A stretch of 64,000 nt of DNA from an uncultured bacterium (GTDB taxonomy: Bacteria; Chlamydiota; Chlamydiia; Chlamydiales; SM23-39): the NCBI GenBank assembly GCA_964641775.1, contig CAZXLK010000001.1, positions 144-64,143 on the forward strand. The letters are read 5' to 3'. Shown in pieces: positions 40,534 through 55,697 of the stretch; the first letter of the stretch is position 1; every line of letters starts with the position of its first letter. Position numbers and translations under genes: made by a program. The notes under the pieces are model-generated. The model was not told the origin of the DNA and searched no databases. It saw nothing but the letters and a program-made list of their open reading frames with translations.

Positions 40534-40585
40534 TTCTCCTCCAAAATAGAACAAAAATTTTACCTCCCCAGTCATTTGAATGCAA

Positions 40586-40974
40586 GGGTGAAGATCCCGG
40601 TTCGTGTAAGTATTTGGGTGCCTAATTCCAAACTGTGTATTTGATCAGCGCAGAGAAAAAAAATAAAAAGAGTTAGAGAGTACGCAGAGAAGAAAAATTG
40701 GCTGCTTCGCAGCATGGAGTTAGAACGGCCAGGCCGGAGATTAGGAGTTGTGTATGAATAATCAATTGACTAATAAAATCATAACTAAGGTATTCGCCGA
40801 TTTGTTTTAGGAACCTCATTAACTCCGGCCTGGCCGATCTAACTCCTGCCGCTTTAGCGGCTATTTTTTTATCTCCGTGAACTCTCTAACTCCCTTTATT
40901 TTTCTCTGTGCTGATCAAATTCACAATTTGGGATCAAACACCCTTTTCATAACACAAACTGGGATCTACACCCC
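40586..40974 (+). mobile_element. internally deleted (MITE-like) derivative of the GxxExxY-gene palindromic element
   Basis: The ends GGGTGAAGATCCCGGTT.. and ..AACTGGGATCTACACCCC match those of the 55.7-kb element. It retains ATGAATAATCAATTGACTAATAAAATCATAACTAAG fused to the gene 3' end GTATTCGCCGATTTGTTTTAG. Confidence 0.75.
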
Positions 40975-41077
40975 TGTTAATTAAACAATTCTGTGAAAAT
41001 TTCTTTTGTGATTAATTTGGATTTGTTTTACAAAAATAAATCAACGAGTAATTTTAATAATTTAATGAAGGGAATAT

Positions 41078-42307
41078 ATGCTTAAAGACAGAATTAAAGT
41101 TAAAGAAAGAAATAGCTGCAGAGTTTGTGGCGGCAAATTGCAGGAAGTATTTGATTTAGGGCTACTTCCAATCTCATGTTTTCCTAAACCGGAAGATCCG
41201 AATCCCGAGTCTCATCCTGTAAAGCTTGCTTTCAACCAGCAATCAGGGCTTGTGCAGCTTTGCCACTCGGTGGATCCGGATGAAATGTATTCTGAATATT
41301 GGTACATGTCAGGCGTCAATCAAACAATGACTCTTGCCCTCATGTCTGTCGTCGATCAAGCAATGAAGCGAGCCCAAAAACTCACAAAAGGGGATGTGGT
41401 TGTAGATATTGCCAGCAATGACGGCACCCTTTTAGCAAACTATCCCGACTTCCTCTTCCGAGTTGGCATTGATCCTGCAAAAAACATCCGGCCGAAATGC
41501 TGCAATCTACATATCAATACCTATTTTAGTAAAGATGCCTACAAAAAAGAGCTTGGTTCAAAAAAAGCCAAAATCATCACTTCCATTGCGGTGTTTTATG
41601 ATTTGGAAGATCCCATTAGTTTTGCAAAAGATGTAAAAGAAATTCTCCATCCGGATGGTATTTGGGTGGTCGAGCTAAGTTATTTACCAACAATGCTTCA
41701 GAAAAATTCCTTTGATACGATTTGCGCCGAGCATCTGGAATATTATTCTCTTCAAGCTTTGGAAAATATCTTCTCGAAGGCTCATTTAAAAGTCGAAGAT
41801 GTAGAACTAAACGATGTAAATGGGGGAAGCATCCGCCTTTATATTCGACATGCGTCTTCTAAAGTGAAAGAGAGCGGGGCAGTAAAAAATCTCCGATATC
41901 GGGAAAAAAATCTCAAACTTACAGAGATTGAGACCTACATTGATTTTCGAGATCGGGTCAAAAATAATAAAAAAGAGATGATCGCCTTTTTAGAAGAGCA
42001 AAAATCGCTTGGCAAAAAGGTCATCGGTTATGGCGCATCGACTAAAGGCAATACAATCCTTGCCTACTATGGAATTGGACCTGATCTACTCCCCTATATC
42101 TGCGATCGCAATCCCATTAAATGGGGAAGACATACAGTCACCCGGATTCCCATCATTTCCGAAGATGAAGCAAGAAGAATGAACCCCGATTATTTCTTGG
42201 CACTCCCCTATCACTTCATGAGAGAGTTTCTAGCGAGAGAAAAAGAATTTCTCGCCGCAGGTGGAAAGTTTGTTTCCCCCATTCCTGAACTTACATTTTT
42301 TTCATAA
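41078..42307 (+). CDS. C-methyltransferase-like enzyme (NDP-sugar C-methyltransferase / TylCIII-like architecture)
   Basis: N-terminal Zn-ribbon CRVCGGKL, SAM motif VVDIASNDGTLL, and a C-terminal Rossmann-like GKKVIGYGASTKGNT. Confidence 0.75.
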   Translation: MLKDRIKVKERNSCRVCGGKLQEVFDLGLLPISCFPKPEDPNPESHPVKLAFNQQSGLVQLCHSVDPDEMYSEYWYMSGVNQTMTLALMSVVDQAMKRAQKLTKGDVVVDIASNDGTLLANYPDFLFRVGIDPAKNIRPKCCNLHINTYFSKDAYKKELGSKKAKIITSIAVFYDLEDPISFAKDVKEILHPDGIWVVELSYLPTMLQKNSFDTICAEHLEYYSLQALENIFSKAHLKVEDVELNDVNGGSIRLYIRHASSKVKESGAVKNLRYREKNLKLTEIETYIDFRDRVKNNKKEMIAFLEEQKSLGKKVIGYGASTKGNTILAYYGIGPDLLPYICDRNPIKWGRHTVTRIPIISEDEARRMNPDYFLALPYHFMREFLAREKEFLAAGGKFVSPIPELTFFS

Positions 42308-42322
42308 CAAGAGGTAATAATA

Positions 42323-43018
42323 ATGAAAAATTATTCAAAAACATTAGATACTTATGATTATGTAACAACAAAAGAAATTAACGGAATTGACCAGATAATT
42401 AATGCAATTATTTTTTCATCATTTAGACCATTTCATCAACATAGAAAATGGGAATATGGTATTTGCCTAAATGCTCTTCGTGAAAGTGGGGCAAAAACCG
42501 TATTGGATGTTGGCGGAACGGGCTCAATGTTTGCTGCTTGCGCCACTTTTCATGGAATGGATGTTACAGTTTTGGACCCTGATGCAGAGGGAGCATACTT
42601 TATTGAAAATCAAAACCGGGTTTTTAAAAGGGATGCTATTCGTTTTATCAATGAGGACTTTTTCCAATTTAAGACGGATCAAAAATATGACGCCGTTGTT
42701 TGCATTAGCACTTTGGAACACGTACCTAATGATTTTGCCTTCTTTAAACGGCTTTTGGGTTTAGTAAAAGATGACGGTTTAGTTTTCCTAACTATGGATT
42801 TTCATCCTAACGGAATGGTGCACGTCGATGGCCATCTTCGAACTTATAATCAAGAGAGGATAGAGACCCTCATAAACATCGCAAAACAAGAAGGTTTTGA
42901 GATTTTTGGCGAGTCTCCCGATTACACATGGAGAGCACCGGATGTCAATGGCTATACTTTTGCATCCCTTGCGCTTCGAAAAAAGGGTCATAATAGCGGA
43001 GATTTTTTTAAAGTTTGA
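42323..43018 (+). CDS. class I SAM-dependent methyltransferase (B-type domain of the array)
   Basis: Contains VLDVGGTGSMFA, DVTVLDPD and YDAVVCISTLEHV. Confidence 0.8.
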   Translation: MKNYSKTLDTYDYVTTKEINGIDQIINAIIFSSFRPFHQHRKWEYGICLNALRESGAKTVLDVGGTGSMFAACATFHGMDVTVLDPDAEGAYFIENQNRVFKRDAIRFINEDFFQFKTDQKYDAVVCISTLEHVPNDFAFFKRLLGLVKDDGLVFLTMDFHPNGMVHVDGHLRTYNQERIETLINIAKQEGFEIFGESPDYTWRAPDVNGYTFASLALRKKGHNSGDFFKV

Positions 43019-43032
43019 GAGGAAATAAATAT

Positions 43033-44367
43033 ATGTATTTAAAAGAAATTGAAGATCGGGTGTTGAATCTGCCCGAAAGAAAATTAAACTATCTCCATGC
43101 CTTAAAGGCTCATGGAGCAAGTAGAATCTGTGTCATCGGAGACGATGACACTTTTTTTTCTTTTGCTGCTGCATCCAATGGAATAGAGGTCACAGTGGTG
43201 CATCCTGATTCTGCCTTTGACAAGTACAATCTATTGATTGGCAGCCGTTTAATTACCTATACCCCCTTGGATCATTTAAAGAATAAATTCGATGCAGTAA
43301 TTTGCAATGATGCTGGGTGCCTGGAAGCTGCTTTAAGCCTTGTAAATGAAGGGGGGTTATTATTTACAAATAGCTCTATCCAAGATGATAGATTTGAGCC
43401 ATGTTCTTATCAATTGGGCATTTTTAAAAAAAGAAAAACACGGGACACACCCGTTGTTTTTTTTGTAAATCATAAAGCCCAGAATTGCGGCACTCATCAA
43501 TATGGTAAAAGAATTGCAAACATCATAAAAAATTCTCAAAAGTGTCAATTTGTGTATGTGGAGGCAGACACTGCAGATGAGTTTTTGCTTCAATATCAGA
43601 GATTTAAACCCAATGGAATTATCTACAATTTTCATTATCTTACAATGCAATGGCTGGAGTGCTCCCTTAGAGAACAAATTAAAAAACAAAAGGTTTTTCA
43701 AGCCTCTATCTTTCATGATCATGTCTTACATGACTTTGATCATTATATCCCGGTTGATCCAAATTTTCCCGAATCGGAGATCAGTTTTCAGAGCCCAAGG
43801 CCATTATTAGAATATGAAAACAAATTTCCTCTTTCCCAAATTCCTATCATCAATTGTTTTGGTTTTGGCTTTGGCAATAAGGGGCATATCAAATTAGCCC
43901 AATTAGTAAATCATCAATTTGATCAGGCCATTTTGAATTTTCATATCCCTGCAAATCAATTTTGCGACTCGCAAGGAATGCAAGCGAGAATGATTGCAAA
44001 TTATTGTCAAAGAGCCATTACAAAACAAGGGATCCAAATCCGTGTAAGCCATGCATTTATGCCGGAAAATGAACTGCTCGACTTTTTAGCAAAGGGCAGT
44101 TTGAATGCATTTTTATATGACGAACTCAATGGATGTGGATGTGCAAGCACCATTGATTATGCAATATCAGTAAAAAGACCTATTGCAATCACAAAGAGCC
44201 ATATGTTCCGCCATATTCGCGATGCAAAACCGAGCATTTGTGTGGAAGATCGGAGCCTCAAAGAAATTATGGCCTCCGGATTTGCCCCATTAGAGCCATA
44301 TTACGAAAAATGGAAACCTTCTAATTTGATTCAAGCCTATGAAAAAATAGTAAAAGAGCTTCTATAA
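43033..44367 (+). CDS. two-domain protein: degenerate Rossmann/MT-like N-domain + GT-B-like glycosyltransferase domain
   Basis: The start MYLKEIEDR is preceded by GAGAGGA. The N-domain has RICVIGDDD..FDAVICND. The C-domain has VVFFVNHKAQNCGTHQYGKR..INCFGFGFGNKGH..FLAKGSLNAFLYDE..RPIAITKS. Confidence 0.7.
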   Translation: MYLKEIEDRVLNLPERKLNYLHALKAHGASRICVIGDDDTFFSFAAASNGIEVTVVHPDSAFDKYNLLIGSRLITYTPLDHLKNKFDAVICNDAGCLEAALSLVNEGGLLFTNSSIQDDRFEPCSYQLGIFKKRKTRDTPVVFFVNHKAQNCGTHQYGKRIANIIKNSQKCQFVYVEADTADEFLLQYQRFKPNGIIYNFHYLTMQWLECSLREQIKKQKVFQASIFHDHVLHDFDHYIPVDPNFPESEISFQSPRPLLEYENKFPLSQIPIINCFGFGFGNKGHIKLAQLVNHQFDQAILNFHIPANQFCDSQGMQARMIANYCQRAITKQGIQIRVSHAFMPENELLDFLAKGSLNAFLYDELNGCGCASTIDYAISVKRPIAITKSHMFRHIRDAKPSICVEDRSLKEIMASGFAPLEPYYEKWKPSNLIQAYEKIVKELL

Positions 44368-44380
44368 AAAAAGGATCTAC

Positions 44381-45955
44381 ATGAAAACTTATTCAAAAAC
44401 TTTAAGTTTGCAGGATTATAAAGACATTCCTGAAATGAATTTTGTCACCTATATGAAAGATAGATTGCATGGCACATATCTTCCTTGTCATGAACATCGG
44501 AGTTGGCAATATGGTCTTTGTTTACATGCACTTAGAACTCACGGAGCAAAACGAATTTTAGAAGTAGGCGGCACCTATTCGATATTTGCTGCATCTGCTG
44601 CTTGGTTCGGCATGGATGTTACGGTTGTAGATCCGGATGGTGCGGGAGTCGAGCTCTTCGCAAGACAAAATATCATTCAGCAATTTCAAGAGCATCGCGT
44701 CCATTTAGTCCAGAAAGATTTTATGCACTATTGGACGAGAAAAAAATTCGATGCTGTGGTTTGTCATAGTCTTTTAGAACACATTGAAGATGATCATTCC
44801 TTTTTTCTCAGGCTACTCAATTTTGTAAGAGAGGGGGGCCTTCTCTATCTTACAGTTGATTTTCATGAAAGCGGTCTTGTTGTAGGGAGTCATTTAAGAT
44901 CCTATAACCAAGCAAGGCTTAATGATTTCATTCAAATTGCTCAAAAGTATGGTTTCGATTTATATGGAGGAGCGGCTGATTATTCTTTTCAGGGAGAATT
45001 TGCCTCTCTTGCTTTGATACGTAAAAAAACAAAACCCACGGTTTTACTTGTAAATCATAAACAAAAAAAACAATGCGGCGTCTTTCAATTTGGCAAACGG
45101 ATTGGGGATCTAATTACCCGCTCTCAAAAATGTAATTTTATCTATGTAGAGGCCGATTCTTTAGATGAATTTTTGCCCTACATCGATATCCATAAGCCTA
45201 GAGGAATCATTTACAATGTCAATTTGCAAAATCTTAGTTGGCTGAGTCAAGAAATAGTGAACCAGATCCGCTCTGCAGGAATTTTTCAAGGATGTATTTA
45301 TCATGAATTTATTATGAGGCTTTTTGATTTCTATATTCCGATGGATCCTGATTTACCGGATAGCGAAGTGAGTTTTAATATGCCGAGACCTCTCTTTGAA
45401 TATGAAAACCCCTATCCAATACCTACTATCCCTACAATCAATAGTTTTGGATTTGGCGATCCTCATAAAGGTTTTGATCTAGTTGCAAAAAAAGTAAATG
45501 ATGAATTTGATCACGCCATTTTAAATATCCATATGACATATAATGACTTTGATCCAAACGCCGTTGAAAAGGCGAACAAAATAGCTAATGCCTGTTATAG
45601 CAATATCACAAAAAAAGGGATTCAATGTAATATTACTAACTCTTTTATGACAGATGAAGAACTCCTTGATTTTCTGGCAAAAGGGAGCTTGAATGCTTTC
45701 TTTTATTACGATCTGCCCGGAAGAACCATTTCTAGCGTAATTGATTTTGCCTTATCAGTGAAAAGGCCAATTGCAATCAGAAAAAGTTATATGGATCGGC
45801 ATGTGTTGAATACAAACCCCAGCATCTGCATCGAGGATCGCAGTCTCAAAGAGATTCTGAATTCAGGCACTCCCCCCCTAGAGCCTTATTACAAAAAATG
45901 GAACTTCTCAAAAACCATCGAAGCTTACGAGAGAGTAGTAGAAAGCTTTATTTAA
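44381..45955 (+). CDS. fusion protein: B-type SAM methyltransferase + GT-B-like glycosyltransferase domain
   Basis: The N-terminal part parallels 42323..43018 (ILEVGGTYSIFAASAAWFGMDVTVVDPD). The C-terminal part parallels 43033..44367 (VLLVNHKQKKQCGVFQFGKR..INSFGFGDPHKG..FLAKGSLNAFFYY). Confidence 0.75.
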   Translation: MKTYSKTLSLQDYKDIPEMNFVTYMKDRLHGTYLPCHEHRSWQYGLCLHALRTHGAKRILEVGGTYSIFAASAAWFGMDVTVVDPDGAGVELFARQNIIQQFQEHRVHLVQKDFMHYWTRKKFDAVVCHSLLEHIEDDHSFFLRLLNFVREGGLLYLTVDFHESGLVVGSHLRSYNQARLNDFIQIAQKYGFDLYGGAADYSFQGEFASLALIRKKTKPTVLLVNHKQKKQCGVFQFGKRIGDLITRSQKCNFIYVEADSLDEFLPYIDIHKPRGIIYNVNLQNLSWLSQEIVNQIRSAGIFQGCIYHEFIMRLFDFYIPMDPDLPDSEVSFNMPRPLFEYENPYPIPTIPTINSFGFGDPHKGFDLVAKKVNDEFDHAILNIHMTYNDFDPNAVEKANKIANACYSNITKKGIQCNITNSFMTDEELLDFLAKGSLNAFFYYDLPGRTISSVIDFALSVKRPIAIRKSYMDRHVLNTNPSICIEDRSLKEILNSGTPPLEPYYKKWNFSKTIEAYERVVESFI

Positions 45956-45959
45956 CAAA

Positions 45960-46124
45960 GAGGTTGTGAAAAAATGGTTACTCATTCGCTTTTGGTAAAT
46001 TTTTGGCCCTTTTTCCGCTTTAGCCTTCGACCAACTCTATTCGAGTTGGCCTTAAGCTTGCATCGAAAAAATTGCAGAAAAATTTAAGCAAAATCGATGG
46101 GCGCCCCCATTTTTTCACAACCTC
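45960..46124. repeat. 165-bp intergenic element bounded by perfect 18-bp inverted repeats
   Basis: GAGGTTGTGAAAAAATGG at 45960-45977 and CCATTTTTTCACAACCTC at 46107-46124 were read directly. An inner small hairpin is CCAACTC/GAGTTGG. Confidence 0.7.
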
Positions 46125-46153
46125 AAAGTCTTCGGGGACCCGTGCGGTCCCCT

Positions 46154-47227
46154 CTATATAAAATGAATTAGATTTTCTTTTATTTTTTTAATAGGAACAG
46201 AGTAACAATTGCTTCTCTTATTGTTTCGAAAAAGTCTCATTGTCGGATACCAGTAACTATCATTTCGGAAGATGCCCCACCTCCAACAGGGCAAAAAGGG
46301 TATGAGAACCCAAGTTGGAATTCCCATAGACCCACTTAGATGGGCGATCGAAGTATCGCAAAGAATGGCTAATTCACAGGTTTTTAAAATCTCTACAGTG
46401 TCTAAAAAGGTTTCGATTTTAGGCCTTTGAATCCCATACATCTTAAGTAGTTTTTCTTCTTCCTGAGAGACTATTTTCTGGACAACAACAAATTGGGTGT
46501 TAGGTTCATCGAATAGAGTAGTAAATTGTGCAAGATCGATCGATTTGCCAGGATAAATACAGGGGTCTATGCGAGGATTTTCAGATTCAGTTCTCCACAT
46601 AATTGCAATTCTTCTTTGAATCGGCTTTAGTTGGATGTTTAAAGGCAACGGAGGAGGAACATTAAAAGGATCTGTTCTACATGTGTAACCCAAACTATCA
46701 TGATAGATAATTTTATCTACATGATCCCAAAGGCTATAGTCTGAATGGATTGTGACATCTAAATGTTCAAGGAGGGAATGTAATTCAGGCTGCAAATGTA
46801 TCGAGACATTGCAGAATTTTTTCAAATAGGGAACATAACGGAGCCATTGGATTGAGTCTCCTAAGCCTCCATGGCAATAAATCAGGAGTTTTTGTCCCTC
46901 TATATTTTCCCCTCTCCATAACTTTGTTTTTGGAATCGGCTTTAAATAAGGGTCGATGCGAGCTTCATGAAGCTCTAATCCCTTCATTAAATCTCCTTTT
47001 ATGAGAACACTAAGGCATTGAAAATATAAAAATCGGGGGTCAGGATTGTTATTAAAAGCATATTGCCAAGCATTGATCGCTTCATCATAACTTTTTAAAA
47101 GATAGAACCAATTAGCAAGAACAGGCCAACTTGCCGGATTTATATTATGTGATACTTTCCGGCACAACTCTAAAGCCTTATCCTCCTCACCTTTTAAAAG
47201 GAATTCCGAAAATAATTTCTCAACCAT
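46154..47227 (-). CDS. short-TPR + GT9-like glycosyltransferase (paralog of 10643..12412 C-terminal part)
   Basis: Contains LLIYCHGGLGDSIQWLRYVP and CDTSIAHLSGSMGIPTWVLIPFLPCWRWGIFRNDSYWYPTMRLFRN. Confidence 0.8.
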   Translation of the reverse strand: MVEKLFSEFLLKGEEDKALELCRKVSHNINPASWPVLANWFYLLKSYDEAINAWQYAFNNNPDPRFLYFQCLSVLIKGDLMKGLELHEARIDPYLKPIPKTKLWRGENIEGQKLLIYCHGGLGDSIQWLRYVPYLKKFCNVSIHLQPELHSLLEHLDVTIHSDYSLWDHVDKIIYHDSLGYTCRTDPFNVPPPLPLNIQLKPIQRRIAIMWRTESENPRIDPCIYPGKSIDLAQFTTLFDEPNTQFVVVQKIVSQEEEKLLKMYGIQRPKIETFLDTVEILKTCELAILCDTSIAHLSGSMGIPTWVLIPFLPCWRWGIFRNDSYWYPTMRLFRNNKRSNCYSVPIKKIKENLIHFI

Positions 47228-47296
47228 ATTTATCTTTTTTCCTTATACCGCTCGTGATTGAAAATCTATATTAATGTAAAAATTATTTCTATTGTG

Positions 47297-47338
47297 TTTT
47301 TTCTGTATTTAATGATAATTATTTTTTTGCATTTATTT
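47297..47338 (+). promoter_or_regulatory. conserved AT-rich upstream element TTTTTTCTGTATTTAATG..ATTATTTTTTTGCATTTATTT
   Basis: Near-identical to 49442-49484 upstream of the paralogous gene. Confidence 0.35.
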
Positions 47339-47388
47339 ATAATATGTCGTAGAAAGAGATGGAAGGAAAAAACATCATAGGTTTTAAT

Positions 47389-48723
47389 ATGTATTTAAAA
47401 GACATTGAAGATAAGATTTCGAATCTATCTGTTAAGAAATTAAAGTATCTCCATGCATTAAAGGCTCATGGAGCAAATCGAATCTGTGTCATTGGCAACG
47501 ATGACATAGATTTATCATTTGCTGCAGCGTCAAACGGAATGCAGGTAACGGTAGTCAATTATGATCCTGCTTTTGATAAGTACAATTTATTGAACTCGAA
47601 ACACTCAATTACCTACATCCCTTTTGACCATCTAACGAAAAAGTTCGACGCAGTGATTTGTAATATCCCTTTGGGCAATCTAAAGGATCGAACTTTAAAG
47701 CTTGTAAATGCCGGTGGATTATTATGTATTAATAGCTCATTGGAAAGTGATCGTTTTGAGGCTTTTCAAGAAGGTATTTTTAGAAAGAGAAAAACTCGGG
47801 ACATCCCCGTTATTTTCTTTGTGAATCATAAAGCGCATCAGTGTGGTGTTTATCAATATGGTAAAAGAATTGCCGACATCTTAAAAAATTCAAAGAATTG
47901 TTATTTTCATTATGTAGAATCTGATTCTGCTCAAGAATTTGCAAATCAATATAATAACTTTAAGCCAAACGGAATCATCTATAATTTTCATTATCTTACC
48001 ATGAAATGGCTTGATACGAACCTTAGAGAACAAATTAAAAACCATGAAGTCTTTCAAGTCTCTATTTTTCATGATCATGTCTTGGCTGGCTTTGATTATT
48101 ATATTCCGGTTGATCCAAATTTTGAAGAATCGAAAATCAGTTTTCAGAGCCCAAGGCCATTATTTGAATATGAAAACAAATTCCCTCTTTCCCAAATTCC
48201 GATCATCAATTGTTTTGGGTTTGGCTTCGGCAATAAAGGGCAGATCAAATTAGCCCAATTGGTGAATTATGAATTTGATGAGGCGATTTTGAACTTTCAC
48301 ATCCCTGCGAGTCACTTTTGCGACGCTCAAGGAATGCAGGCGCAGGCAATTGCAAATTTATGTCAAAGAGCCATCACAAAAAAAGGAATTCAACTCCATC
48401 TAAGCCATAGATTTATGCCGGAAAATGAGTTGCTCGATTTTTTAGCAAAGGGCAGTTTGAATGCATTTCTTTACGATGAACTCAATCTAGGTGGATGTGC
48501 AAGCACCATTGATTATGCATTATCTGTAAAAAGACCTATTGCAATTACAAAGAGCCATATGTTTCGCCATATTCGCGATGCAAAGCCCAGCATTTGCGTA
48601 GAAGATCGAAGTCTTAAAGAAATTATGGCATCCGGCTTTACACCATTAGAGCCATTTTACGAAAAATGGAAACCATCCAATTTGATTCGATCCTATGAAA
48701 ATATAGTAAAAAAGCTTGTTTAA
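47389..48723 (+). CDS. two-domain MT-like + GT-B-like protein, close paralog of 43033..44367
   Basis: The start MYLKDIEDK was chosen by homology. The C-terminal ~100 aa are almost identical to the paralog (RPIAITKSHMFRHIRDAKPSICVEDRSLKEIMASGF). Confidence 0.75.
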   Translation: MYLKDIEDKISNLSVKKLKYLHALKAHGANRICVIGNDDIDLSFAAASNGMQVTVVNYDPAFDKYNLLNSKHSITYIPFDHLTKKFDAVICNIPLGNLKDRTLKLVNAGGLLCINSSLESDRFEAFQEGIFRKRKTRDIPVIFFVNHKAHQCGVYQYGKRIADILKNSKNCYFHYVESDSAQEFANQYNNFKPNGIIYNFHYLTMKWLDTNLREQIKNHEVFQVSIFHDHVLAGFDYYIPVDPNFEESKISFQSPRPLFEYENKFPLSQIPIINCFGFGFGNKGQIKLAQLVNYEFDEAILNFHIPASHFCDAQGMQAQAIANLCQRAITKKGIQLHLSHRFMPENELLDFLAKGSLNAFLYDELNLGGCASTIDYALSVKRPIAITKSHMFRHIRDAKPSICVEDRSLKEIMASGFTPLEPFYEKWKPSNLIRSYENIVKKLV

Positions 48724-49385
48724 ATATTTCGTCTTCCCGGATGAAGAACATAATCCATAATAACATTTGGCTTAACGGGATGCACTGCAGCATCCCTAAA
48801 ATTTTTCGGCATGAATGGTCCCGAATTCATTCTCATCATCTGTTCCAAACAACGCTCCGGAGAAGTAGAACTGCCATAAATAGAATTTAATGTTAGAAGA
48901 TCTTTATAATCCCAAGCTTTCATAAAATTCTTAGGCGTTGCACATCCGGTAATATCTAAATAATATGGACCGGAAACATAAGCATCTTTTTCGAAACATT
49001 GATTCAGATCATAAAACTTATAGGAAGTGTCGATTCGACAATAAAAAACAAAATCAAAATTTTTAAAATTTTCATAAATACGATTTGATCCATTCTTCAT
49101 GGTGTAAAAATGCTTATAAGCATGATATGCACAGCAGCCATCTGGGGTTCTTGTCCTTAATAAATTCGTTTCCACATCAATTCGATCTGGTTCATCTACT
49201 AGAATAGGTAAATCGATCTTTGTCGATAGATGTTCTACAAATTCTCTATCTAATGGGTTATTCCATGTATGAAGAACAACTTTTACTTCATGGTCTACAA
49301 AACTATTGATTATGTCTTGAAAATTAGATAGGCAAAATTTAAGATCTGGTCTAATCGGTCCTTTTATAAAAATAACGATTTTCAT
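48720..49385 (-). CDS. hypothetical protein, weak WavE-like N-terminus (tentative glycan-synthesis accessory)
   Basis: 221-aa ORF. KIVIFIKGPIRPD..VKVVLHTWNN resembles the WavE family start. The functional call is low confidence. Confidence 0.5.
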   Translation of the reverse strand: MKIVIFIKGPIRPDLKFCLSNFQDIINSFVDHEVKVVLHTWNNPLDREFVEHLSTKIDLPILVDEPDRIDVETNLLRTRTPDGCCAYHAYKHFYTMKNGSNRIYENFKNFDFVFYCRIDTSYKFYDLNQCFEKDAYVSGPYYLDITGCATPKNFMKAWDYKDLLTLNSIYGSSTSPERCLEQMMRMNSGPFMPKNFRDAAVHPVKPNVIMDYVLHPGRRNI

Positions 49386-49432
49386 TATATTCTCCTTGTT
49401 AATTCTAGTTTACAATTTAAAATTTATATCAT

Positions 49433-49484
49433 TCTACTAGATTTTTTCTGTATTTAATGCAAATTATTATTTTGCATTTATTTT
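49433..49484 (+). promoter_or_regulatory. conserved upstream element TCTACTAGATTTTTTCTGTATTTAATG..TTGCATTTATTTT
   Basis: Shares 20 nt (TCTACTAGATTTTTTCTGTA) with 52413-52432, and the rest with 47297-47338. Confidence 0.35.
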
Positions 49485-49546
49485 CGACTTATTTCACACT
49501 GGAATTTAGAATTTTGATAAATTGCATAATTAAACATAAGGAATTT

Positions 49547-51124
49547 ATGAAGACACTTTCCAAAACATTAGAAGTTGCAGATTATGATGTAAGTCCCGAA
49601 ATGAATTTTATGAATCAAATGAAAATCAAATTTGGGGGCACATTCTCACCCACTCATAATCATCGCACTTGGGAATACGGAATATGTTTAAAAGCTCTTC
49701 TTGCAAATGGCTCAAAAAGAATTTTGCAAATAGGAGGCAGTGGATCGGTTTTTGCTGCATCAGCTGCTTTGGTTGGGATGGATGTAACAGTGGTAGATCC
49801 CGATCCGGCAGGCGCTGATTTTTTTCCAAAACAAAATCTCCTTTTACAATATAAGGGAATTCATTATGAACAGCTAGATTTCCTCAAATATAAAAATCAA
49901 AAAAAGTTTGATGCGGTTGTTTGTTTGGGAGTATTGGCACATATCGCTGATGATCTGAACTTTTTTACCCATCTTTTGAGCTTTGTCAAGGAAAGGGGTT
50001 TATTATTTATGACCATGGACTTTCATCCAAGTGCGAATCAGCTGACAAGTGCTCACCATCGAACCTATAATGAAGAGAAGCTAATGAGTCTTGCGCAGCT
50101 TGGGTTTAATAAAGGATTTGCATTCTATGGAGGAGAGCCTGACTATTCATGGAAAGAAGAAAATGTTGCATCTCTTTCTTTAATAAGAAAAAAAAGGAGG
50201 GATGTTCCTGTTGTTCTTTTCGCAAATCATAAAGCTAAAAAACAATGCGGGGTTTATCAATATGGGAAAAGAGCTGCTCGCATTTTAGAGAGATCAACGA
50301 AATGTCGATTTATATACGTAGAATCCGATTCATTAAATGAATTTATTCCTGAAATAGAAAAATATCAGCCAAATGGGATCATTTATAATAACCATATCGC
50401 AAATTTTTCTTGGCTGCCTGGCGAAGTAAGGACTTTTCTGAAAAAGCATGGTGTTTTCGAAGCAGCTTTATTTCATGAGTCACATCTATCTTCTTTTGAT
50501 ACTTTTATTTCGATCAATCCCAATATTCCTGAATCTCCAATGACATTTACAACGCCTAGACCTTTATTTGAATATGATAACAAATATCCTCTGCCGCAAA
50601 TTCCTGTTATTAATAGTTTTGGATTTTCTTCAGATAAAAAGGGGTTTGATACACTTGTTAAGCTTGTAAATGAACAATTTGATACTGCAATAATTAATAT
50701 TCAAATCACTCATAATGAATTTAACGAAAGTATGGACGTTGTTTATCAAAACGCTGCTAGCTGCCAAGGTTTAATTACCAAACCAGGTATTCAATTGAAT
50801 ATCAACCATGAATTCCTCTCTGATGAAAAGCTACTCGATTTTCTTGCAAAAGCGAGTATAAATGTATTTTTATATCATCCTATGCATGGAAGAGGTTGTT
50901 CAAGCGTAATAGATTATGCACTTTCTGTAAGAAGGCCGATTGCTATCACTAAAAGTTTTATGTTCCGTCATATTTCTGATGCAAAACCAAGCATTTGCGT
51001 TGAAGATAGAAGTCTTCATGAAATCATGGCAACGGGCTTCGGTCCATTAGAGCCTTATTATGATAAATGGAGGCCTGAAAAATTCTTTTCTGCATATGAA
51101 GAGATTGTCGAATCATTAATGTAA
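49547..51124 (+). CDS. fusion protein: B-type SAM methyltransferase + GT-B-like domain, paralog of 44381..45955
   Basis: The start MKTLSKTLEVADY is preceded by TAAGGAA. Contains ILQIGGSGSVFAASAALVGMDVTVVDPD and VVLFANHKAKKQCGVYQYGKR..INSFGFSSDKKG..RPIAITKSFMFRHISDAKPSICVEDRSL. Confidence 0.75.
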   Translation: MKTLSKTLEVADYDVSPEMNFMNQMKIKFGGTFSPTHNHRTWEYGICLKALLANGSKRILQIGGSGSVFAASAALVGMDVTVVDPDPAGADFFPKQNLLLQYKGIHYEQLDFLKYKNQKKFDAVVCLGVLAHIADDLNFFTHLLSFVKERGLLFMTMDFHPSANQLTSAHHRTYNEEKLMSLAQLGFNKGFAFYGGEPDYSWKEENVASLSLIRKKRRDVPVVLFANHKAKKQCGVYQYGKRAARILERSTKCRFIYVESDSLNEFIPEIEKYQPNGIIYNNHIANFSWLPGEVRTFLKKHGVFEAALFHESHLSSFDTFISINPNIPESPMTFTTPRPLFEYDNKYPLPQIPVINSFGFSSDKKGFDTLVKLVNEQFDTAIINIQITHNEFNESMDVVYQNAASCQGLITKPGIQLNINHEFLSDEKLLDFLAKASINVFLYHPMHGRGCSSVIDYALSVRRPIAITKSFMFRHISDAKPSICVEDRSLHEIMATGFGPLEPYYDKWRPEKFFSAYEEIVESLM

Positions 51125-51164
51125 AAATAAATAAAATGCTTGCTCTTATTGAGCAAGCATATTT

Positions 51165-52355
51165 TTATACTTTTCCCCATTTTTGAATGGCCTGGTTGTA
51201 TTCGGGCCCAAAGTTGCCATCTATTGCTTGCCGCATAGCTTTTACACCTGCTAATGTCCCTCCCGGATGTCCATGAAGCGATCCTCCGCAATTTGCCATG
51301 TAATCAAATCCAATGTTTTTGGTAATTCCACCCACAAGCCCGGGGTGCATTCCGCAACTAAGAGCAGCAGCAACGTTTGCTTTTTGAAGTGTTTGAATCA
51401 CTTCATGTATGTCATCTCCTCCCTGATTGTAATACCCGCCAATCATCCCTGCATGAATGAAATCTACGCCCATCAGAGCTGCTAATTTGCAAATAAAATG
51501 CCACCGAATATGAAACTGATGCTCACTATGCGTTAAAACTTTATCACCGCTTTTTTGAAAATGGATAAATATGGGAAGATCCAATTCTCGAATTGCTTTA
51601 TATGTTCCAAGGCCGCTCCAGAAATTTAAATGGATAGCATTTGCTCCTAATGCATACACTTTTTGAACTCTATTTAAGACGTGGTGGGCATCTGCATTAA
51701 TACAAACAGCATAAATTACTTTTTTTCCTTTTAAATAATCCATAATCAATGGAACGCGAATTTCTATTGGACAGATTGGAGGATTGGACATGATCTCGTC
51801 TTCTTTGATGAAATTAACTCCTCCTTCGACCATTTCTTTTACTAATTCAAGGAGTGTGTCTGGAGTTACTCCTACTTTTGGCTTGATGATTCCACCAAGA
51901 AGAGGTTTATCATATACTCCTAAATAATCTCGAATTCCCCTCATGCCGTATTTAGGACCTTTAAATAGTTTTAAAATCTCTTTTGGAAAATCAACATCGA
52001 TAAGGTGGCATGCCAAGATATTTTCAATATCCATTTGCCCGCCCATCAAATGACATAATAATTTCGATATTCCATCAGTATTAATATCTATATTTGCGAT
52101 AGGAAAAGCGATATGAACAAACCCCCTCTTTTGATTTATTAAACTCTTCTCATCACCAATTACTAAACACGAATGATTTTCGAATAATTCTTCTGTTTCC
52201 CAATGATTTCTAACATTGGGATTTCCGACACTTTGTCCAATTGCAAGATTCCAAGCGGCATCTCTCAGATTGGTTTTACTCTCAAGCCAGTATTTTGCAA
52301 TAAAGTATTTCTCTACAACTATGATTGATCTAAATATATTCATATGTATTTTCAT
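51165..52355 (-). CDS. RuBisCO large-subunit-like protein (form IV RLP)
   Basis: GGIIKPKVGVTP and GGVNFIKEDEIMSNPP correspond to KPKLG and GGxDFxKDDE. GVDFIHAGMIGG is present, and the C-terminal CGGSLHGHPGGTLAGVKAMRQA corresponds to GGGxxGHPxGxxAGAxAxRQA. Confidence 0.8.
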   Translation of the reverse strand: MKIHMNIFRSIIVVEKYFIAKYWLESKTNLRDAAWNLAIGQSVGNPNVRNHWETEELFENHSCLVIGDEKSLINQKRGFVHIAFPIANIDINTDGISKLLCHLMGGQMDIENILACHLIDVDFPKEILKLFKGPKYGMRGIRDYLGVYDKPLLGGIIKPKVGVTPDTLLELVKEMVEGGVNFIKEDEIMSNPPICPIEIRVPLIMDYLKGKKVIYAVCINADAHHVLNRVQKVYALGANAIHLNFWSGLGTYKAIRELDLPIFIHFQKSGDKVLTHSEHQFHIRWHFICKLAALMGVDFIHAGMIGGYYNQGGDDIHEVIQTLQKANVAAALSCGMHPGLVGGITKNIGFDYMANCGGSLHGHPGGTLAGVKAMRQAIDGNFGPEYNQAIQKWGKV

Positions 52356-52412
52356 TATTTAATTAATCTGTTATTAATACGATTCGAATTTAAAAAGATT
52401 ATATTAGATTTG

Positions 52413-52432
52413 TCTACTAGATTTTTTCTGTA
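52413..52432 (+). promoter_or_regulatory. third copy of the TCTACTAGATTTTTTCTGTA motif, immediately upstream of the arginase-family gene
   Basis: Identical 20-mer to 49433-49452. It also sits in a divergent intergenic region. Confidence 0.3.
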
Positions 52433-52441
52433 AATTATTAT

Positions 52442-53329
52442 ATGTGCCAAAATATGGGGCGTATCTATCACGTAATTGGGGCCTCCTCCTGCTGGGGGGC
52501 GCAGATTAGGGCGTGCGAAAAAGGGCCGCGCGATTTGATCGAAGGAAGAGTTTTTGAAAGGCTTCAGCAGATGGGCGTCAAAATCAAAGATATTGAAATG
52601 CTCTTTCCTAACGAGAGGGCATCGGAAGTCAAACACCCTCTTGCTTCATCGCTTCCACTCATCCATGAATTCAATGTCCGCTTAGCGAAAAGAGTCCGTG
52701 AGATTCGGCAAAAAGGACAAATGCCCGTTGTCATTGGCGGCGACCATACAAATGCCGTAGGGACATGGAATGGGATGGAAAAGCCTTTTGGCCTTCTTTG
52801 GATTGATGCTCACATGGATGCCCATACGATGGAAACGACTCCATCAGGCGCCTTTCATGGGATGCCGGTTGCTGCGCTACTCGGTCATGGAGTGAGAGAA
52901 CTTTCGCAGCTTTTGAAAAAAGAGCCTGTTTTAACTCCGGAGCGACTTGCACTCATAGGGACCCGCTCTTTTGAAGAAGGAGAGGCCGATCTTTTAAAGA
53001 AATTGGGCGTGAAGATCTATTTCATCGAAGAAGTTCAAAAGCGGGGTTTAAAAGAGATTATCCCTGAGGCCATTGAACACGTAACTAAAGGGAGTCTTTC
53101 TCTTGGAATTAGTCTTGATCTCGATGCCTTTGCAATTGACGAGGCCCCGGGCGTGGGAAGTCCCGAATCGGGAGGAATCCATGCCAAGGAAATGCTTCCC
53201 CTCTTTTCGATCATTGGGAGCGATCCAAGGCTTTTAGCCTTTGAAATTGTTGAATTTAACCCCGAGCTTGACGTGAACCATATGACTAGAGAGCTGGTTT
53301 TTCAGATTTTAGAAAGAGTGATGCAATGA
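52442..53329 (+). CDS. arginase/ureohydrolase family enzyme (arginase-like)
   Basis: Mn-ligand motifs GGDHTNAVG, WIDAHMDAHT and SLDLDAF are present. The start could be 52442 or 52454. Confidence 0.85.
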   Translation: MCQNMGRIYHVIGASSCWGAQIRACEKGPRDLIEGRVFERLQQMGVKIKDIEMLFPNERASEVKHPLASSLPLIHEFNVRLAKRVREIRQKGQMPVVIGGDHTNAVGTWNGMEKPFGLLWIDAHMDAHTMETTPSGAFHGMPVAALLGHGVRELSQLLKKEPVLTPERLALIGTRSFEEGEADLLKKLGVKIYFIEEVQKRGLKEIIPEAIEHVTKGSLSLGISLDLDAFAIDEAPGVGSPESGGIHAKEMLPLFSIIGSDPRLLAFEIVEFNPELDVNHMTRELVFQILERVMQ

Positions 53330-54330
53330 TCAGAGTTCTTACCATTGATGACGTAAAAAAGCTCATAGAAAAAGTGGGGATCAAATCGTTTATTTTACAA
53401 CTGATTGATCAATTAGAAAAAGATTATTCCCGCTGGCAAGAATTTAAAAAATCTCCCCGACCTGCAATCTATTTTCCCGAAGGGGTAATTGAGGTCATGC
53501 CCATTGCAGATCAAGAGCTCTACTCCTTCAAATATGTGAATGGCCATCCGGAAAATCCCAAGAAGAAAAAATTAACTGTTGTGGGGCTCGGCCTAATGGC
53601 TCATGCGGCAAATGGCTATCCATTCCTATTTTCTGAAATGACGCTCCTCACTGCCTTTCGAACCGCAGCAACTTCTGCCTTGGCATCCAAGTATTTAGCA
53701 AGAAAAGGAAGTAAAACCTTTGGCATCATTGGAACGGGGGCTCAAAGCGAGTTTCAAACTCTTGCTCATCTGTTTGCACTTGATCTTAAAGAAATCTACT
53801 ACTTTGACATTGACCCGCAAGCGATGAAAAAATTTCAAGCAAATCTAAAGACCTACAAACTCATCCCCTGCAAAAGCGCGGAAGAAGTCGCCCAAAAATC
53901 GGATGTTCTTACCATTGCAGTAGCGGCAAAAGGGCATCAGAAAATCGTCAAAAAAGAATGGGTAAAAAAAGGGACTCATCTCAATGGCATTGGAGGAGAT
54001 AGCCCGGGAAAAACGGAGCTTGACCCTGCGCTTACTGCCCAGTGTAAAATCATCGTTCAATTCTTAGAGCAAACAAAGGATGAGGGTGAAATTCAAATGG
54101 TGGGAAAAGACAAAGTCTATGCCGAGCTTTGGGAGCTTGCCGCAAAGAAAAAACCGGGAAGAGAATCCAATGATGAAATCACCCTTTTTGACTCAGTAGG
54201 TTTTGCATTAGAAGACTTTAGCACCCTATACCTCGTTAATTTACTCGCAGAAAAAGAAAATATCGGCCATCATCTCAACATGATTCCGGAGCAGCTACAA
54301 AACCCCAAAAATCTCTTCTCGCTTTTATGA
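53326..54330 (+). CDS. ornithine cyclodeaminase / mu-crystallin family protein
   Basis: Contains TLLTAFRTAATSALASKYLA and FGIIGTGAQSEF (NAD fold). It has an ATGA overlap with the arginase gene stop. Confidence 0.85.
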   Translation: MIRVLTIDDVKKLIEKVGIKSFILQLIDQLEKDYSRWQEFKKSPRPAIYFPEGVIEVMPIADQELYSFKYVNGHPENPKKKKLTVVGLGLMAHAANGYPFLFSEMTLLTAFRTAATSALASKYLARKGSKTFGIIGTGAQSEFQTLAHLFALDLKEIYYFDIDPQAMKKFQANLKTYKLIPCKSAEEVAQKSDVLTIAVAAKGHQKIVKKEWVKKGTHLNGIGGDSPGKTELDPALTAQCKIIVQFLEQTKDEGEIQMVGKDKVYAELWELAAKKKPGRESNDEITLFDSVGFALEDFSTLYLVNLLAEKENIGHHLNMIPEQLQNPKNLFSLL

Positions 54331-55697
54331 CCAAAAAAATCTCCTTTTTTGCTCTGATTTTATTGATCATTTCTGCAGTCGATAGCAACCGAAACCTCCC
54401 ATCTGCCGCAATCTTTGGCGCTCCTCTCATTTTTTTCTTTTTATTTTCTGCCGTATTTTTCCTTTTCCCCAGCGCGCTCATTGCAGCAGAACTCTCTGCT
54501 GCATTTCCGGAAGAAGGGGGGATTTACCATTGGGTAAAAGCCGCATTTAACGATCGATTCGGGATGATTGCTGTTTGGCTTCAATGGGTCAATTCGGTCA
54601 TTTGGTTTCCTACAATTTTGACATTCCTTGCAGGGGTGCTGACGTATTTATTTGATCCTGCATTGATGGATCATAAAATCTATATGATTTCGGTTATTAC
54701 AATTCTTTTTTGGAGTTTGACGATCATCAATCTTTTTGGCATTTCAATCTCTGCCAAGTTTAACTCATTTTTTTCCGTTATTGGAACGATATTTCCGATG
54801 CTTTTTTTGATTGCCTTAGGGATCTATTGGATCCTAAGAAAAGAACCTTTTCAAATCCCAATTACGGCAGAAGCCATTTTCCCCTCTCTTGCCAAATTCG
54901 ACAATTGGACAGCTCTTGTTGCAATCATGGGCTCTTTTGTCGGAATGGAGCTTTCCGGAGTCCACGTTGCCAATACGCCGCATCCCCAAAAAACATTTCC
55001 CAGAGCCCTTTTTCTAGCTGCGATCTACATCTTGGCCACGATGCTTTTCGGCTCTTTAACCATTGCCATAGTCCTGCCGATGGAAGAGATCAATTTAGCG
55101 GGCGGGCTGATGCAAGTTTTTTATAACTTTTTCAAAGTATTTCATTTAGAAGGTCTGATTCCTATCATGACCCTTCTGATTGTTTTAGGAAGCATTGGTG
55201 GGATGATCAATTGGCTCATTGCCCCTGCAAAAAGTCTTCACTACTGCTCACAATATGGCTTTCTTCCCCCATTTTTTTCAAAATTAAACCGGCATGGCGC
55301 CCCTAGCCGGATTCTAATTGCTCAGGCAATAATTGTAAGTTTCATTAGCATTGTGATTTTTCTTCTTCCTTCAATCAATGCCTTTTATTGGTTTTTAACA
55401 GCGCTCAGCAATTGCCTTTATATGTTTATGTATATTCTCATGTTCATTTCCGCCTATCGCCTTCGCTCCCACCGCCTTCCCGGTGTTTTCCGCGTCCCCG
55501 GAGGCTACCCGGGACTTTGCCTTTTCATTCTCCTCGGTCTCATCGGCGCCACCCTAACCATCATCATCGGCTTTGTCCCCCCATCCCAAATCAACATCGG
55601 CAACCACCTCCATTACGTTCTTCTAATTGCCTTCGGCAACATCATCGCCATCCTCCCCGTCTTCGCCTTCATCACCTACAAAAAGAAAACCCGTTAA
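54327..55697 (+). CDS. APC-superfamily amino acid permease/antiporter
   Basis: 456 aa with ~12 TM segments. AELSAAFPEEGGIYHWV is typical of APC family members. It overlaps the preceding stop. Confidence 0.85.
   Translation: MTKKISFFALILLIISAVDSNRNLPSAAIFGAPLIFFFLFSAVFFLFPSALIAAELSAAFPEEGGIYHWVKAAFNDRFGMIAVWLQWVNSVIWFPTILTFLAGVLTYLFDPALMDHKIYMISVITILFWSLTIINLFGISISAKFNSFFSVIGTIFPMLFLIALGIYWILRKEPFQIPITAEAIFPSLAKFDNWTALVAIMGSFVGMELSGVHVANTPHPQKTFPRALFLAAIYILATMLFGSLTIAIVLPMEEINLAGGLMQVFYNFFKVFHLEGLIPIMTLLIVLGSIGGMINWLIAPAKSLHYCSQYGFLPPFFSKLNRHGAPSRILIAQAIIVSFISIVIFLLPSINAFYWFLTALSNCLYMFMYILMFISAYRLRSHRLPGVFRVPGGYPGLCLFILLGLIGATLTIIIGFVPPSQINIGNHLHYVLLIAFGNIIAILPVFAFITYKKKTR

Follow-up and report, generated by a model that had tools for sequence, protein, structure and literature searches.

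An intact RuBisCO-like protein gene

A 64-kb stretch of contig CAZXLK010000001.1 (hereafter the window, meaning the whole of that stretch) carries a gene for a RuBisCO-like protein (RLP), whose relatives elsewhere lie in glycan clusters, almost always next to genes for NTP_transferase-like sugar nucleotidyltransferases (NTases).

51165..52355, minus strand: RLP gene; open reading frame (ORF) of 396 amino acids (aa), with a probable true start at 52343 that gives 392 aa; 'Form IV-like' phage/Candidate Phyla Radiation (CPR) clade.

The original prediction had described a 396-aa homolog of the RuBisCO large subunit, and the ORF, the profile match and the structural model all bear this out. The ORF translation contains the quoted motifs IKPKVG, GGVNFIKEDE, IFIHFQKSG and GGSLHGHPGG..AMRQA, and residues 139-380 match Pfam RuBisCO_large (PF00016) with E 1.5e-33 (116.8 bits; cut-off 30.1). 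The AlphaFold2 model, built from 52 family sequences, has a pLDDT of 90 and a pTM of 0.88; over the full length it superimposes on form III RuBisCO with a TM score of 0.87-0.88 and on MtnW with a TM score of 0.83. The match to the TIM-barrel domain, together with the N-terminal domain-barrel architecture, places the protein in the RuBisCO large-subunit superfamily. The family alignment, in which residues 2-3 of the ORF are missing in 93% of relatives, suggests that the true start is Met5 (ATG at 52343). Across 197 aligned family sequences, the RLP keeps all strongly conserved residues except for two conservative positions. Because the fold model, the family alignment and the conserved residues agree, we consider the gene real and intact.

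Active-site residues of the RLP

The RLP was aligned with form I RuBisCO, MtnW and OiaX, and invariance was judged in the 52-sequence family alignment (residues in one-letter code carry RuBisCO numbering, those in three-letter code that of the RLP unless another protein is named). Residues K175, K177, K201, D203, E204, H327, S379, G381 and G403/G404 are kept in the RLP and invariant in the family; this set corresponds to the metal/carbamate site, both lysines of the KPK motif and the P1 phosphate cup. K334 is replaced by Tyr308, a tyrosine that is itself invariant. H294 and R295 align with Gln267 and Lys268, both of which are invariant in the family; another alignment register would pair them with His265 and Phe266. 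The HxHR motif reads H-F-Q-K, which confirms the divergence from HRAxH (IFIHFQKSG) that had been read from the translation. H298, N123, E60, T65 and W66 are replaced as well, and the protein is shorter both behind loop 6 and at the C-terminus. The position aligned to N123 is Gly106/Gln107, where Gln107 is family-invariant; the equivalent position in MtnW is presumably that of the catalytic lysine (Lys98 in G. kaustophilus).

The active-site comparison that had been proposed as a check, made here by alignment, found the metal and P1 sites kept and the carboxylation residues missing. This pattern is the signature of an enzyme that enolizes without carboxylating and still binds a phosphate beside the carbonyl that reacts. 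The structures nearest to the model are nonetheless form III RuBisCOs (T. kodakarensis 3a12, P. horikoshii 2d69 and 8dht, with the TM scores given above), and the IKPK and KxDE motifs are common to both, which would be compatible with a genuine form III-like enzyme that fixes CO2 on ribulose-1,5-bisphosphate (RuBP). Against this stand the invariant tyrosine at K334, the other replacements listed above, the shortened post-loop-6 region and C-terminus and an identity of 24-25%. The RLP scores 164 against the form III profile TIGR03326 (cut-off 497) and 156 against the RuBisCO profile PRK04208 (cut-off 438). With both scores under the cut-off and the catalytic and substrate-binding set incomplete, it is not a bona fide RuBisCO of forms I-III, and we give a carboxylase function practically no chance of being correct.

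Placement among RuBisCO-like proteins

Reference genes were taken from annotated plasmids and comprised C. necator form I CbbL, B. velezensis MtnW, Rhizobium OiaX and four RLPs adjoining four-carbon acid-sugar kinases. The window RLP is ~30% identical to each of MtnW, OiaX and the kinase-linked RLPs and 24% identical to form I, with at least 48% identity within its own family. All its NCBIfam matches fall far under the cut-offs: besides the two RuBisCO profiles, these are NF007095 (MtnW; the top match, 171 versus 409), TIGR03332 (MtnW/YkrW; 143.8 versus 513.6) and NF042437 (OiaX; 138.9 versus 700). The best PDB sequence match is 2oek, an MtnW (E 5.6e-38), and the same search gave weak matches to the Photo-clade entries 1tel/1ykw (72 bits) and to R. 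palustris RLP2, 2qyg (74 bits). A simple neighbor-joining tree of the RLP family with MtnW, OiaX, the kinase-linked RLPs and form I recovers the family as monophyletic, with MtnW as a distant sister. By sequence, the RLP lies outside each characterized clade compared (form I, MtnW, OiaX and kinase-linked). Membership of such a clade, which the original prediction had named as its refutation, is contradicted by scores, identities and tree alike, and its description of a non-carboxylating RLP of experimentally open function fits the residue pattern and this placement.

The likeness to MtnW/YkrW (PDB 2oek, 2zvi and 4nas) comprises the best sequence match (~30%), the fold, the carbamyl-Lys/Asp/Glu metal site and the P1 phosphate site. 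In contrast, K177 is lost in MtnW and kept in the window RLP, the MtnW base lysine is replaced by Gln, and the context of the RLP is that of glycan clusters without mtnX/mtnK/mtnA neighbors. Neither the window ORFs scanned (22.7-55.7 kb) nor the surveyed loci described below provided a context of mtnX, mtnK, mtnA, mtnB or mtnD; as originally noted, the scanned ORFs hold no methionine-salvage or acid-sugar-kinase gene. Membership of the MtnW/YkrW enolases of 2,3-diketo-5-methylthiopentyl-1-phosphate (DK-MTP-1-P) was therefore rejected, given the sub-cut-off scores, the Gln at the catalytic-Lys position and the missing salvage context. The OiaX/OiaT and DUF1537-kinase RLPs belong to the same superfamily, share ~30% identity and act on phosphorylated keto-sugar acids. 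Their HxHR motif is HFQK in the window RLP, which has no adjoining kinase, and they are catabolic, whereas the context of the window RLP family is biosynthetic. With no kinase adjoining and the OiaX score so far under its cut-off, the protein was not assigned to them.

Jaffe et al. (2019, Mol Biol Evol; PMC6389311) described a 'Form IV-like' group of ~80 sequences on phage contigs, some of them Myoviridae, and in Beckwithbacteria, which forms an outgroup to the other RLPs and for which they mention no nucleotidyltransferase or glycosyl context. The window RLP belongs to this phage/Beckwithbacteria clade, as matched by distribution and description rather than by their sequences: both share the occurrence in phages and Beckwithbacteria, the divergence from all RLP clades and the partial catalytic set. 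The window copy differs in its location in an ordinary bacterial chromosome, with dnaN, recF, smpB and prfC nearby; the window itself gave no rRNA, tRNA or Rfam match from which its taxonomy could be read. IV-GOS is plausibly an older name of the same clade. The literature searched contained no follow-up to Jaffe et al. on the function of 'Form IV-like' RLPs.

A conserved module of NTase, GDPD-like protein and cupin

Relatives of the RLP are widespread. A protein search gave 2,881 matches at E ≤ 1e-10, the best 120 listed being 61-78% identical. At least 181 IMG/VR contigs carry relatives at 53-66% identity, including some of 190-274 kb and one giant-virus metagenome-assembled genome (MAG), as do at least 505 contigs of a metagenome collection; PHROGs holds no family that matches the RLP. 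Representative carrier genomes include Patescibacteria (58% identity in a MAG), a Beckwithbacteria MAG (55%), Pelagibacteraceae single-cell genomes, Phycisphaerales, Crocinitomicaceae and a Verrucomicrobiae MAG (75%).

The neighborhood analysis that had been recommended for these relatives uncovered a recurrent gene module in glycan clusters. ORFs were called in each fetched locus (L-numbers; P-numbers denote homolog proteins) and clustered by BLASTP. Full-flank loci are the non-redundant ones in which either flank of the RLP gene extends for 5 kb or more, and a partner was counted within 6 kb. Among 58 full-flank loci seeded with the RLP, an NTase is present in 54, a GDPD-like protein in 41 and a small cupin in 35, and a member of the DUF7796/WavE-like superfamily lies within the same distance in 35. 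An independent metagenome set of loci with full flanks (n=23) gave 23 loci with an NTase, 19 with a GDPD-like protein, 14 with a cupin and 16 with DUF7796. When viral loci were seeded with the cupin instead (n=47), all 47 held the NTase as well as the cupin, 37 the GDPD-like protein and 41 an RLP.

The three partners correspond to PHROG 3980 (NTase), PHROG 34507 (GDPD-like) and PHROG 24762 (cupin). The NTase partner has ~245 aa, its best solved relative is the NDP-sugar pyrophosphorylase of V. cholerae (4evw), and it gives weak NCBIfam matches to sugar-1-phosphate nucleotidyltransferases. The GDPD-like partner (~150 aa) contains the complete N-terminal catalytic motifs of glycerophosphodiester phosphodiesterases (profile versus 7e0v, E 5e-5), and the cupin (~107 aa) carries the canonical HxH(x)4E metal motif. 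Other genes around the RLP elsewhere are consistently glycan genes and encode glycosyltransferases of families GT2, GT4, GT25 and GT61, epimerase/dehydratases of the short-chain dehydrogenase/reductase (SDR) family, DegT, UDP-GlcNAc 2-epimerase and O-methyltransferases (FkbM and Methyltransf_24/CmcI). The gene order in the sub-clade of the window RLP is DUF7796-like, RLP, Methyltransf_24-like, GDPD-like, NTase and cupin. Two homologs, P0038 and P0093, are NTase-RLP fusion proteins of 637 aa; P0038 is encoded in L019 and L020, adjoining WavE/GT2/methyltransferase and HAD genes. Elsewhere, HAD phosphatases form fusions with this NTase family; in the cultured Synechococcus phage Bellamy, which has no RLP, its fusion partner is an RpiB/LacAB sugar-phosphate isomerase (Pfam, 3.9e-32).

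L109, MF351863 156654-170953: Bellamy locus; gp206 NTase-RpiB/LacAB, gp207 cupin, gp208/gp214 DUF7796-like, gp209 tandem NTase, gp213 GDPD-like.

The RLP clade is thus near-obligately linked in its genomic context to a sugar-phosphate nucleotidyltransferase, to which it is sometimes fused, and the RLP is occasionally replaced by an RpiB-type isomerase. The Bellamy cluster (gp200-217) has the NTase family, GDPD-like protein, cupin, DUF7796-like proteins, SDR and glycosyltransferases in common with the RLP loci; it differs in the missing RLP, in the RpiB/LacAB domain fused to the NTase and in the presence of GHMP and PfkB kinases and a class II aldolase. Replacement by RpiB is not the rule in RLP-less cupin loci: only Bellamy-type phages have RpiB, and the six such loci from IMG/VR have NTase-HAD fusions instead. 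A review of jumbo phages treats sugar clusters of cyanophages, in which cupins, kinases, NTases, HADs and O-methyltransferases occur, as systems that modify lipopolysaccharide or capsule, without mention of RuBisCO homologs (PMC7824862). The Bellamy locus also holds a KdsC-like HAD and a GT61 gene beside the aldolase and the kinases, and its module genes are mostly annotated as hypothetical or 'phosphatase'.

The recurrent cupin raises an acireductone-type route, in which an MtnW-like enolase would act on a 2,3-diketo-1-phosphate, an HAD phosphatase and a cupin dioxygenase would yield a 2-keto-acid sugar and the NTase would activate it. MtnW provides the best matches of the RLP (2oek and NF007095) and its sister in the tree, the cupin has the metal motif, HAD phosphatases are fused to the NTase or lie nearby in some loci, and a class II aldolase, a member of the MtnB family, is found in phage Bellamy and in L202. 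However, the RLP scores less than half of either MtnW cut-off, has an invariant Gln at what we take to be the catalytic-lysine position and keeps K177, unlike MtnW. Only 13 of 75 loci have an HAD-like gene at a distance of up to 6 kb, so that HAD was rejected as a core partner, and the core module lacks a dehydratase. We consider this route distinctly improbable.

Two further sets of relatives illustrate other surroundings. Three Pelagibacteraceae single-cell contigs (L008, L011 and L014) encode an RLP of ~419 aa (47-49% identical) that is flanked by two paralogous NTases. The module on these SAR11 contigs starts directly after thyX (product versus PDB 6j61, E 7.5e-66), which is probably the chromosomal flank of a small variable island. 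On the contig of P0010 (JGI 3300075153), a 69%-identical RLP adjoins a transaldolase/FSA-family gene and a homolog of 3,4-dihydroxy-2-butanone-4-phosphate (DHBP) synthase, with HAD, NTase, GT25 and phage integrase genes nearby. These surroundings hint that pentulose phosphate chemistry feeds the pathway.

The glycosylation island of the window

The window RLP gene lies at one end of an island of low GC content (41078-52355; GC 0.365, with 0.373 for the RLP gene and ~0.42 for the flanks), whose other genes include:

41078..42307, plus strand: sugar C-methyltransferase (Methyltransf_14/13 architecture, by Pfam), first gene of the low-GC island.
43015-44367, 44381-45955, 47359-48723 and 49457-51124, plus strand: four paralogous genes (by repeat families and Pfam).
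46154-47227, minus strand: 357-aa gene with weak N-terminal TPR matches and no other Pfam match.
48720..49385, minus strand: gene of a 221-aa DUF7796/WavE-like protein, the sole canonical RLP partner kept in the window.

When every member of the NTase, GDPD-like and cupin families was used as a query, tblastn of the 64 kb gave no match better than E 0.003, and the window is the only one of the 58 full-flank loci without any of the three. It has accessory partners of the module and none of its core. The clearest accessory partner is the 221-aa protein, whose orthologs (59-60% identical) are encoded immediately upstream of the RLP gene in L006, L199 and L200, the loci whose RLPs are 75%, 78% and 77% identical to the window copy, respectively. 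Family members hold the same position in L198, L110, L111 and L201. The 221-aa protein alone has no Pfam or NCBIfam match, and its AlphaFold2 model, from a 3-sequence alignment, is unusable for fold assignment (pLDDT 39). In a profile comparison (hhalign), its family matches the commonest accessory neighbor family of the RLP, A5, with a probability of 99.1% (E 1e-18), and 15 of the 41 members of this superfamily match Pfam DUF7796, and one WavE. The adjacency of DUF7796 and RLP genes that is conserved elsewhere is broken in the window by an inserted paralogous gene.

Other island genes likewise have counterparts near the RLP module. The C-methyltransferase has homologs close to the module in L202 (44% identical) and L231 (40%). 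The four paralogs share a C-terminal region without a Pfam match; L231 encodes three stand-alone homologs of this region (~310 aa), all within one co-directional array that also holds NTase-cupin-RLP-GDPD. At the N-terminus, Pfam detects a class I methyltransferase domain only in the paralogs at 44381-45955 and 49457-51124; the other two have no significant Pfam match. The span of the paralogs (43015..51124) also holds the two minus-strand genes 46154-47227 and 48720-49385. By eye only, the shared C-terminal region resembles the C-terminus of a GT-B-type glycosyltransferase, and the 357-aa protein has a GGLGD-type motif that recalls GT9 heptosyltransferases.

At the left edge of the island, in the 500-nt gap between a SIMPL-family gene and the C-methyltransferase gene, nested inverted repeats (40583-40976) form a near-perfect hairpin of ~400 nt (RNA minimum free energy -200 kcal/mol, z-score -21.5) without an Rfam match. 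It could be an element like a miniature inverted-repeat transposable element (MITE) or a recombination scar.

A shared upstream element and the arginase flank

The regions that bound the RLP gene and its minus-strand neighbors are:

47228..47358: intergenic spacer preceding the 357-aa gene; a diverged copy of the motif, the third, lies here, and 47287-47338 matches 49432-49483 at 87% identity.
49386..49456: intergenic spacer preceding the 221-aa gene; the motif occurs here in its second exact copy (49433-49452).
51136..51160, both strands: bidirectional terminator-like hairpin with a 10-bp stem and 5 GC pairs, from a promoter/terminator scan.
52356..52441: RLP-arginase intergenic region of 86 nt, with the motif at 52413-52432; GC boundary of the island.
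52442-55697, plus strand: neighboring operon for an arginase-family protein, an ornithine cyclodeaminase and a GadC-like APC antiporter; GC 0.42-0.48.

The 20-nt motif TCTACTAGATTTTTTCTGTA occurs in the window in two exact copies (49433-49452 and 52413-52432; 0 expected by chance), and the diverged third copy spans 47287-47307. Similarity extends beyond the motif, 52382-52432 being 73% identical to 49402-49452 over 51 nt. Viewed on the minus strand, the element reads AATAATAATT...TACAGAAAAAATCTAGTAGA and precedes the start codons of the 357-aa, 221-aa and RLP genes by 48-80 nt, whereas its distance to plus-strand genes is irregular. In the orientation that we infer, it would serve the minus-strand island genes. 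Since the hairpin at 51136..51160, which separates the stop codons of two convergent genes (RLP and 555-aa), follows the RLP stop, we read the RLP gene as monocistronic; it thus appears to be a single-gene unit whose upstream regulatory element is common to other island genes.

The original prediction had the RLP gene share a divergent promoter region with the arginase-family gene (52442-53329), a region that carries the 20-nt motif of the glycosylation island. The divergent arrangement and the two exact copies are there, but the position of the motif fits the minus-strand island genes. The operon itself, which scores 194 bits for arginase (TIGR01229; cut-off 227.6), 414 for the cyclodeaminase (NF005762; cut-off 350) and 386 for the antiporter (cut-off 650), fits a route from arginine via ornithine to proline with an exchanger. 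The divergent layout and the common 86-nt region are what would speak for an RLP that works with these enzymes. No homolog of the arginase, the ornithine cyclodeaminase or the APC permease was found in the ~188 other loci that carry an RLP relative, and GC rises from 0.373 in the RLP gene to 0.477 in the arginase gene, which puts the edge of the island in the region between them. Because of these two findings we regard the pairing as incidental. The motif lies where minus-strand island genes would need it, and we know of no RLP chemistry that involves amino acids. The predicted functional pairing with arginine catabolism is thus very improbable. The informative context is the island itself and the NTase/GDPD-like/cupin module elsewhere, which had been overlooked, as had the earlier phage report (PMC6389311).

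The missing core partners and the interrupted DUF7796-RLP adjacency, in an island of low GC, could also mean that the window gene is what is left of a phage-derived module, stranded and intact but without a pathway, and either non-functional or drifting. Yet the RLP keeps all family-invariant residues and has its own terminator as well as its own copy of the upstream element used by other island genes. The partners may lie elsewhere in the genome, of which the window covers 64 kb, and other island genes co-occur with the module in other loci. On balance a remnant is unlikely.

A proposed role in nucleotide-sugar biosynthesis

The reading that we favor, with slightly better than even confidence, is that the RLP is a Mg2+-dependent enolizing enzyme of nucleotide-sugar biosynthesis for surface glycans, acting as a phospho-ketose isomerase/epimerase, and that the window copy is the outermost gene of an acquired island. 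The RLP would abstract a proton alpha to the carbonyl of a phosphorylated keto-sugar to form a Mg-stabilized enediolate, whose reprotonation would yield the isomer or the 3-epimer, an unusual sugar phosphate destined for nucleotidyl activation. Isomerization and 3-epimerization via an enediolate are the chemistry of the R. rubrum RLP isomerase and of the misfire by which RuBisCO converts RuBP to xylulose-1,5-bisphosphate (XuBP). The substrate would be of the 1-phospho-2-ketose type or possibly a ketose linked to a nucleoside diphosphate (NDP); the latter might be admitted because the protein is shorter behind loop 6 and at its C-terminus. The adjoining NTase, the small metal cupin and the GDPD-like phosphodiesterase would then handle the product, the cupin perhaps as an isomerase or a dioxygenase and the GDPD-like protein perhaps in phosphodiester cleavage or transfer. 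DUF7796/WavE-like transferases and O-/C-methyltransferases would install and decorate the activated sugar. In the window, the low-GC glycosylation island would have been gained by horizontal transfer, with the RLP gene outermost in it and the arginase operon as its chromosomal flank, and the RLP gene would either have lost its three core partners or sit apart from them.

Comparative genomics strongly supports the link of the clade to glycans and nucleotide sugars, and for the window copy this support is indirect. We found no description of that link in the searchable literature. What the reaction is, how the steps follow one another and that the product is destined for glycans are points that we infer from genomic association only.

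Several points weigh against the proposed role. The functional case is guilt by association throughout and, because all three core partners are missing from the window, the module-based argument reaches the window copy only indirectly. The combination of RLP and cupin, with an occasional HAD, resembles MtnW/MtnX/MtnD and so would suit an enolase rather than an isomerase step. No RLP was found by tblastn in the deposited phage genomes of INPHARED, which leaves the clade without a cultured phage reference, and some of the contigs that IMG/VR lists as 'viral' may really be glycan islands of cells. Those who described the clade called its function unclear (PMC6389311).

Beyond the window, we suggest, with somewhat less than even confidence, that RLP-NTase-GDPD-cupin constitutes a pathway not described before. 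It would yield a novel sugar in nucleotide-activated form, or a novel sugar-phosphate substituent, for surface-glycan remodeling in large phages, SAR11, Patescibacteria and other bacteria. The RLP would act in it as an isomerase/3-epimerase, replaced by an RpiB-type enzyme in some cyanophages.

As to the window, the RLP gene should be annotated as part of the glycosylation island rather than of arginine catabolism. More broadly, the whole clade, with thousands of metagenomic sequences, is apparently wired to sugar nucleotidyltransferases in glycan clusters. Should this association reflect function, it would give the 'Form IV-like' phage RLPs a testable role, point to an unknown activated sugar in phage-driven surface remodeling and offer a compact four-gene set for biochemical reconstitution. 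To our knowledge, every characterized RLP acts in catabolism or salvage, namely in methionine salvage, the methylthioadenosine (MTA)-isoprenoid shunt or the degradation of apiose or tetronate. If true, the proposed function would be the first anabolic, glycan-building role of a RuBisCO-family enzyme.

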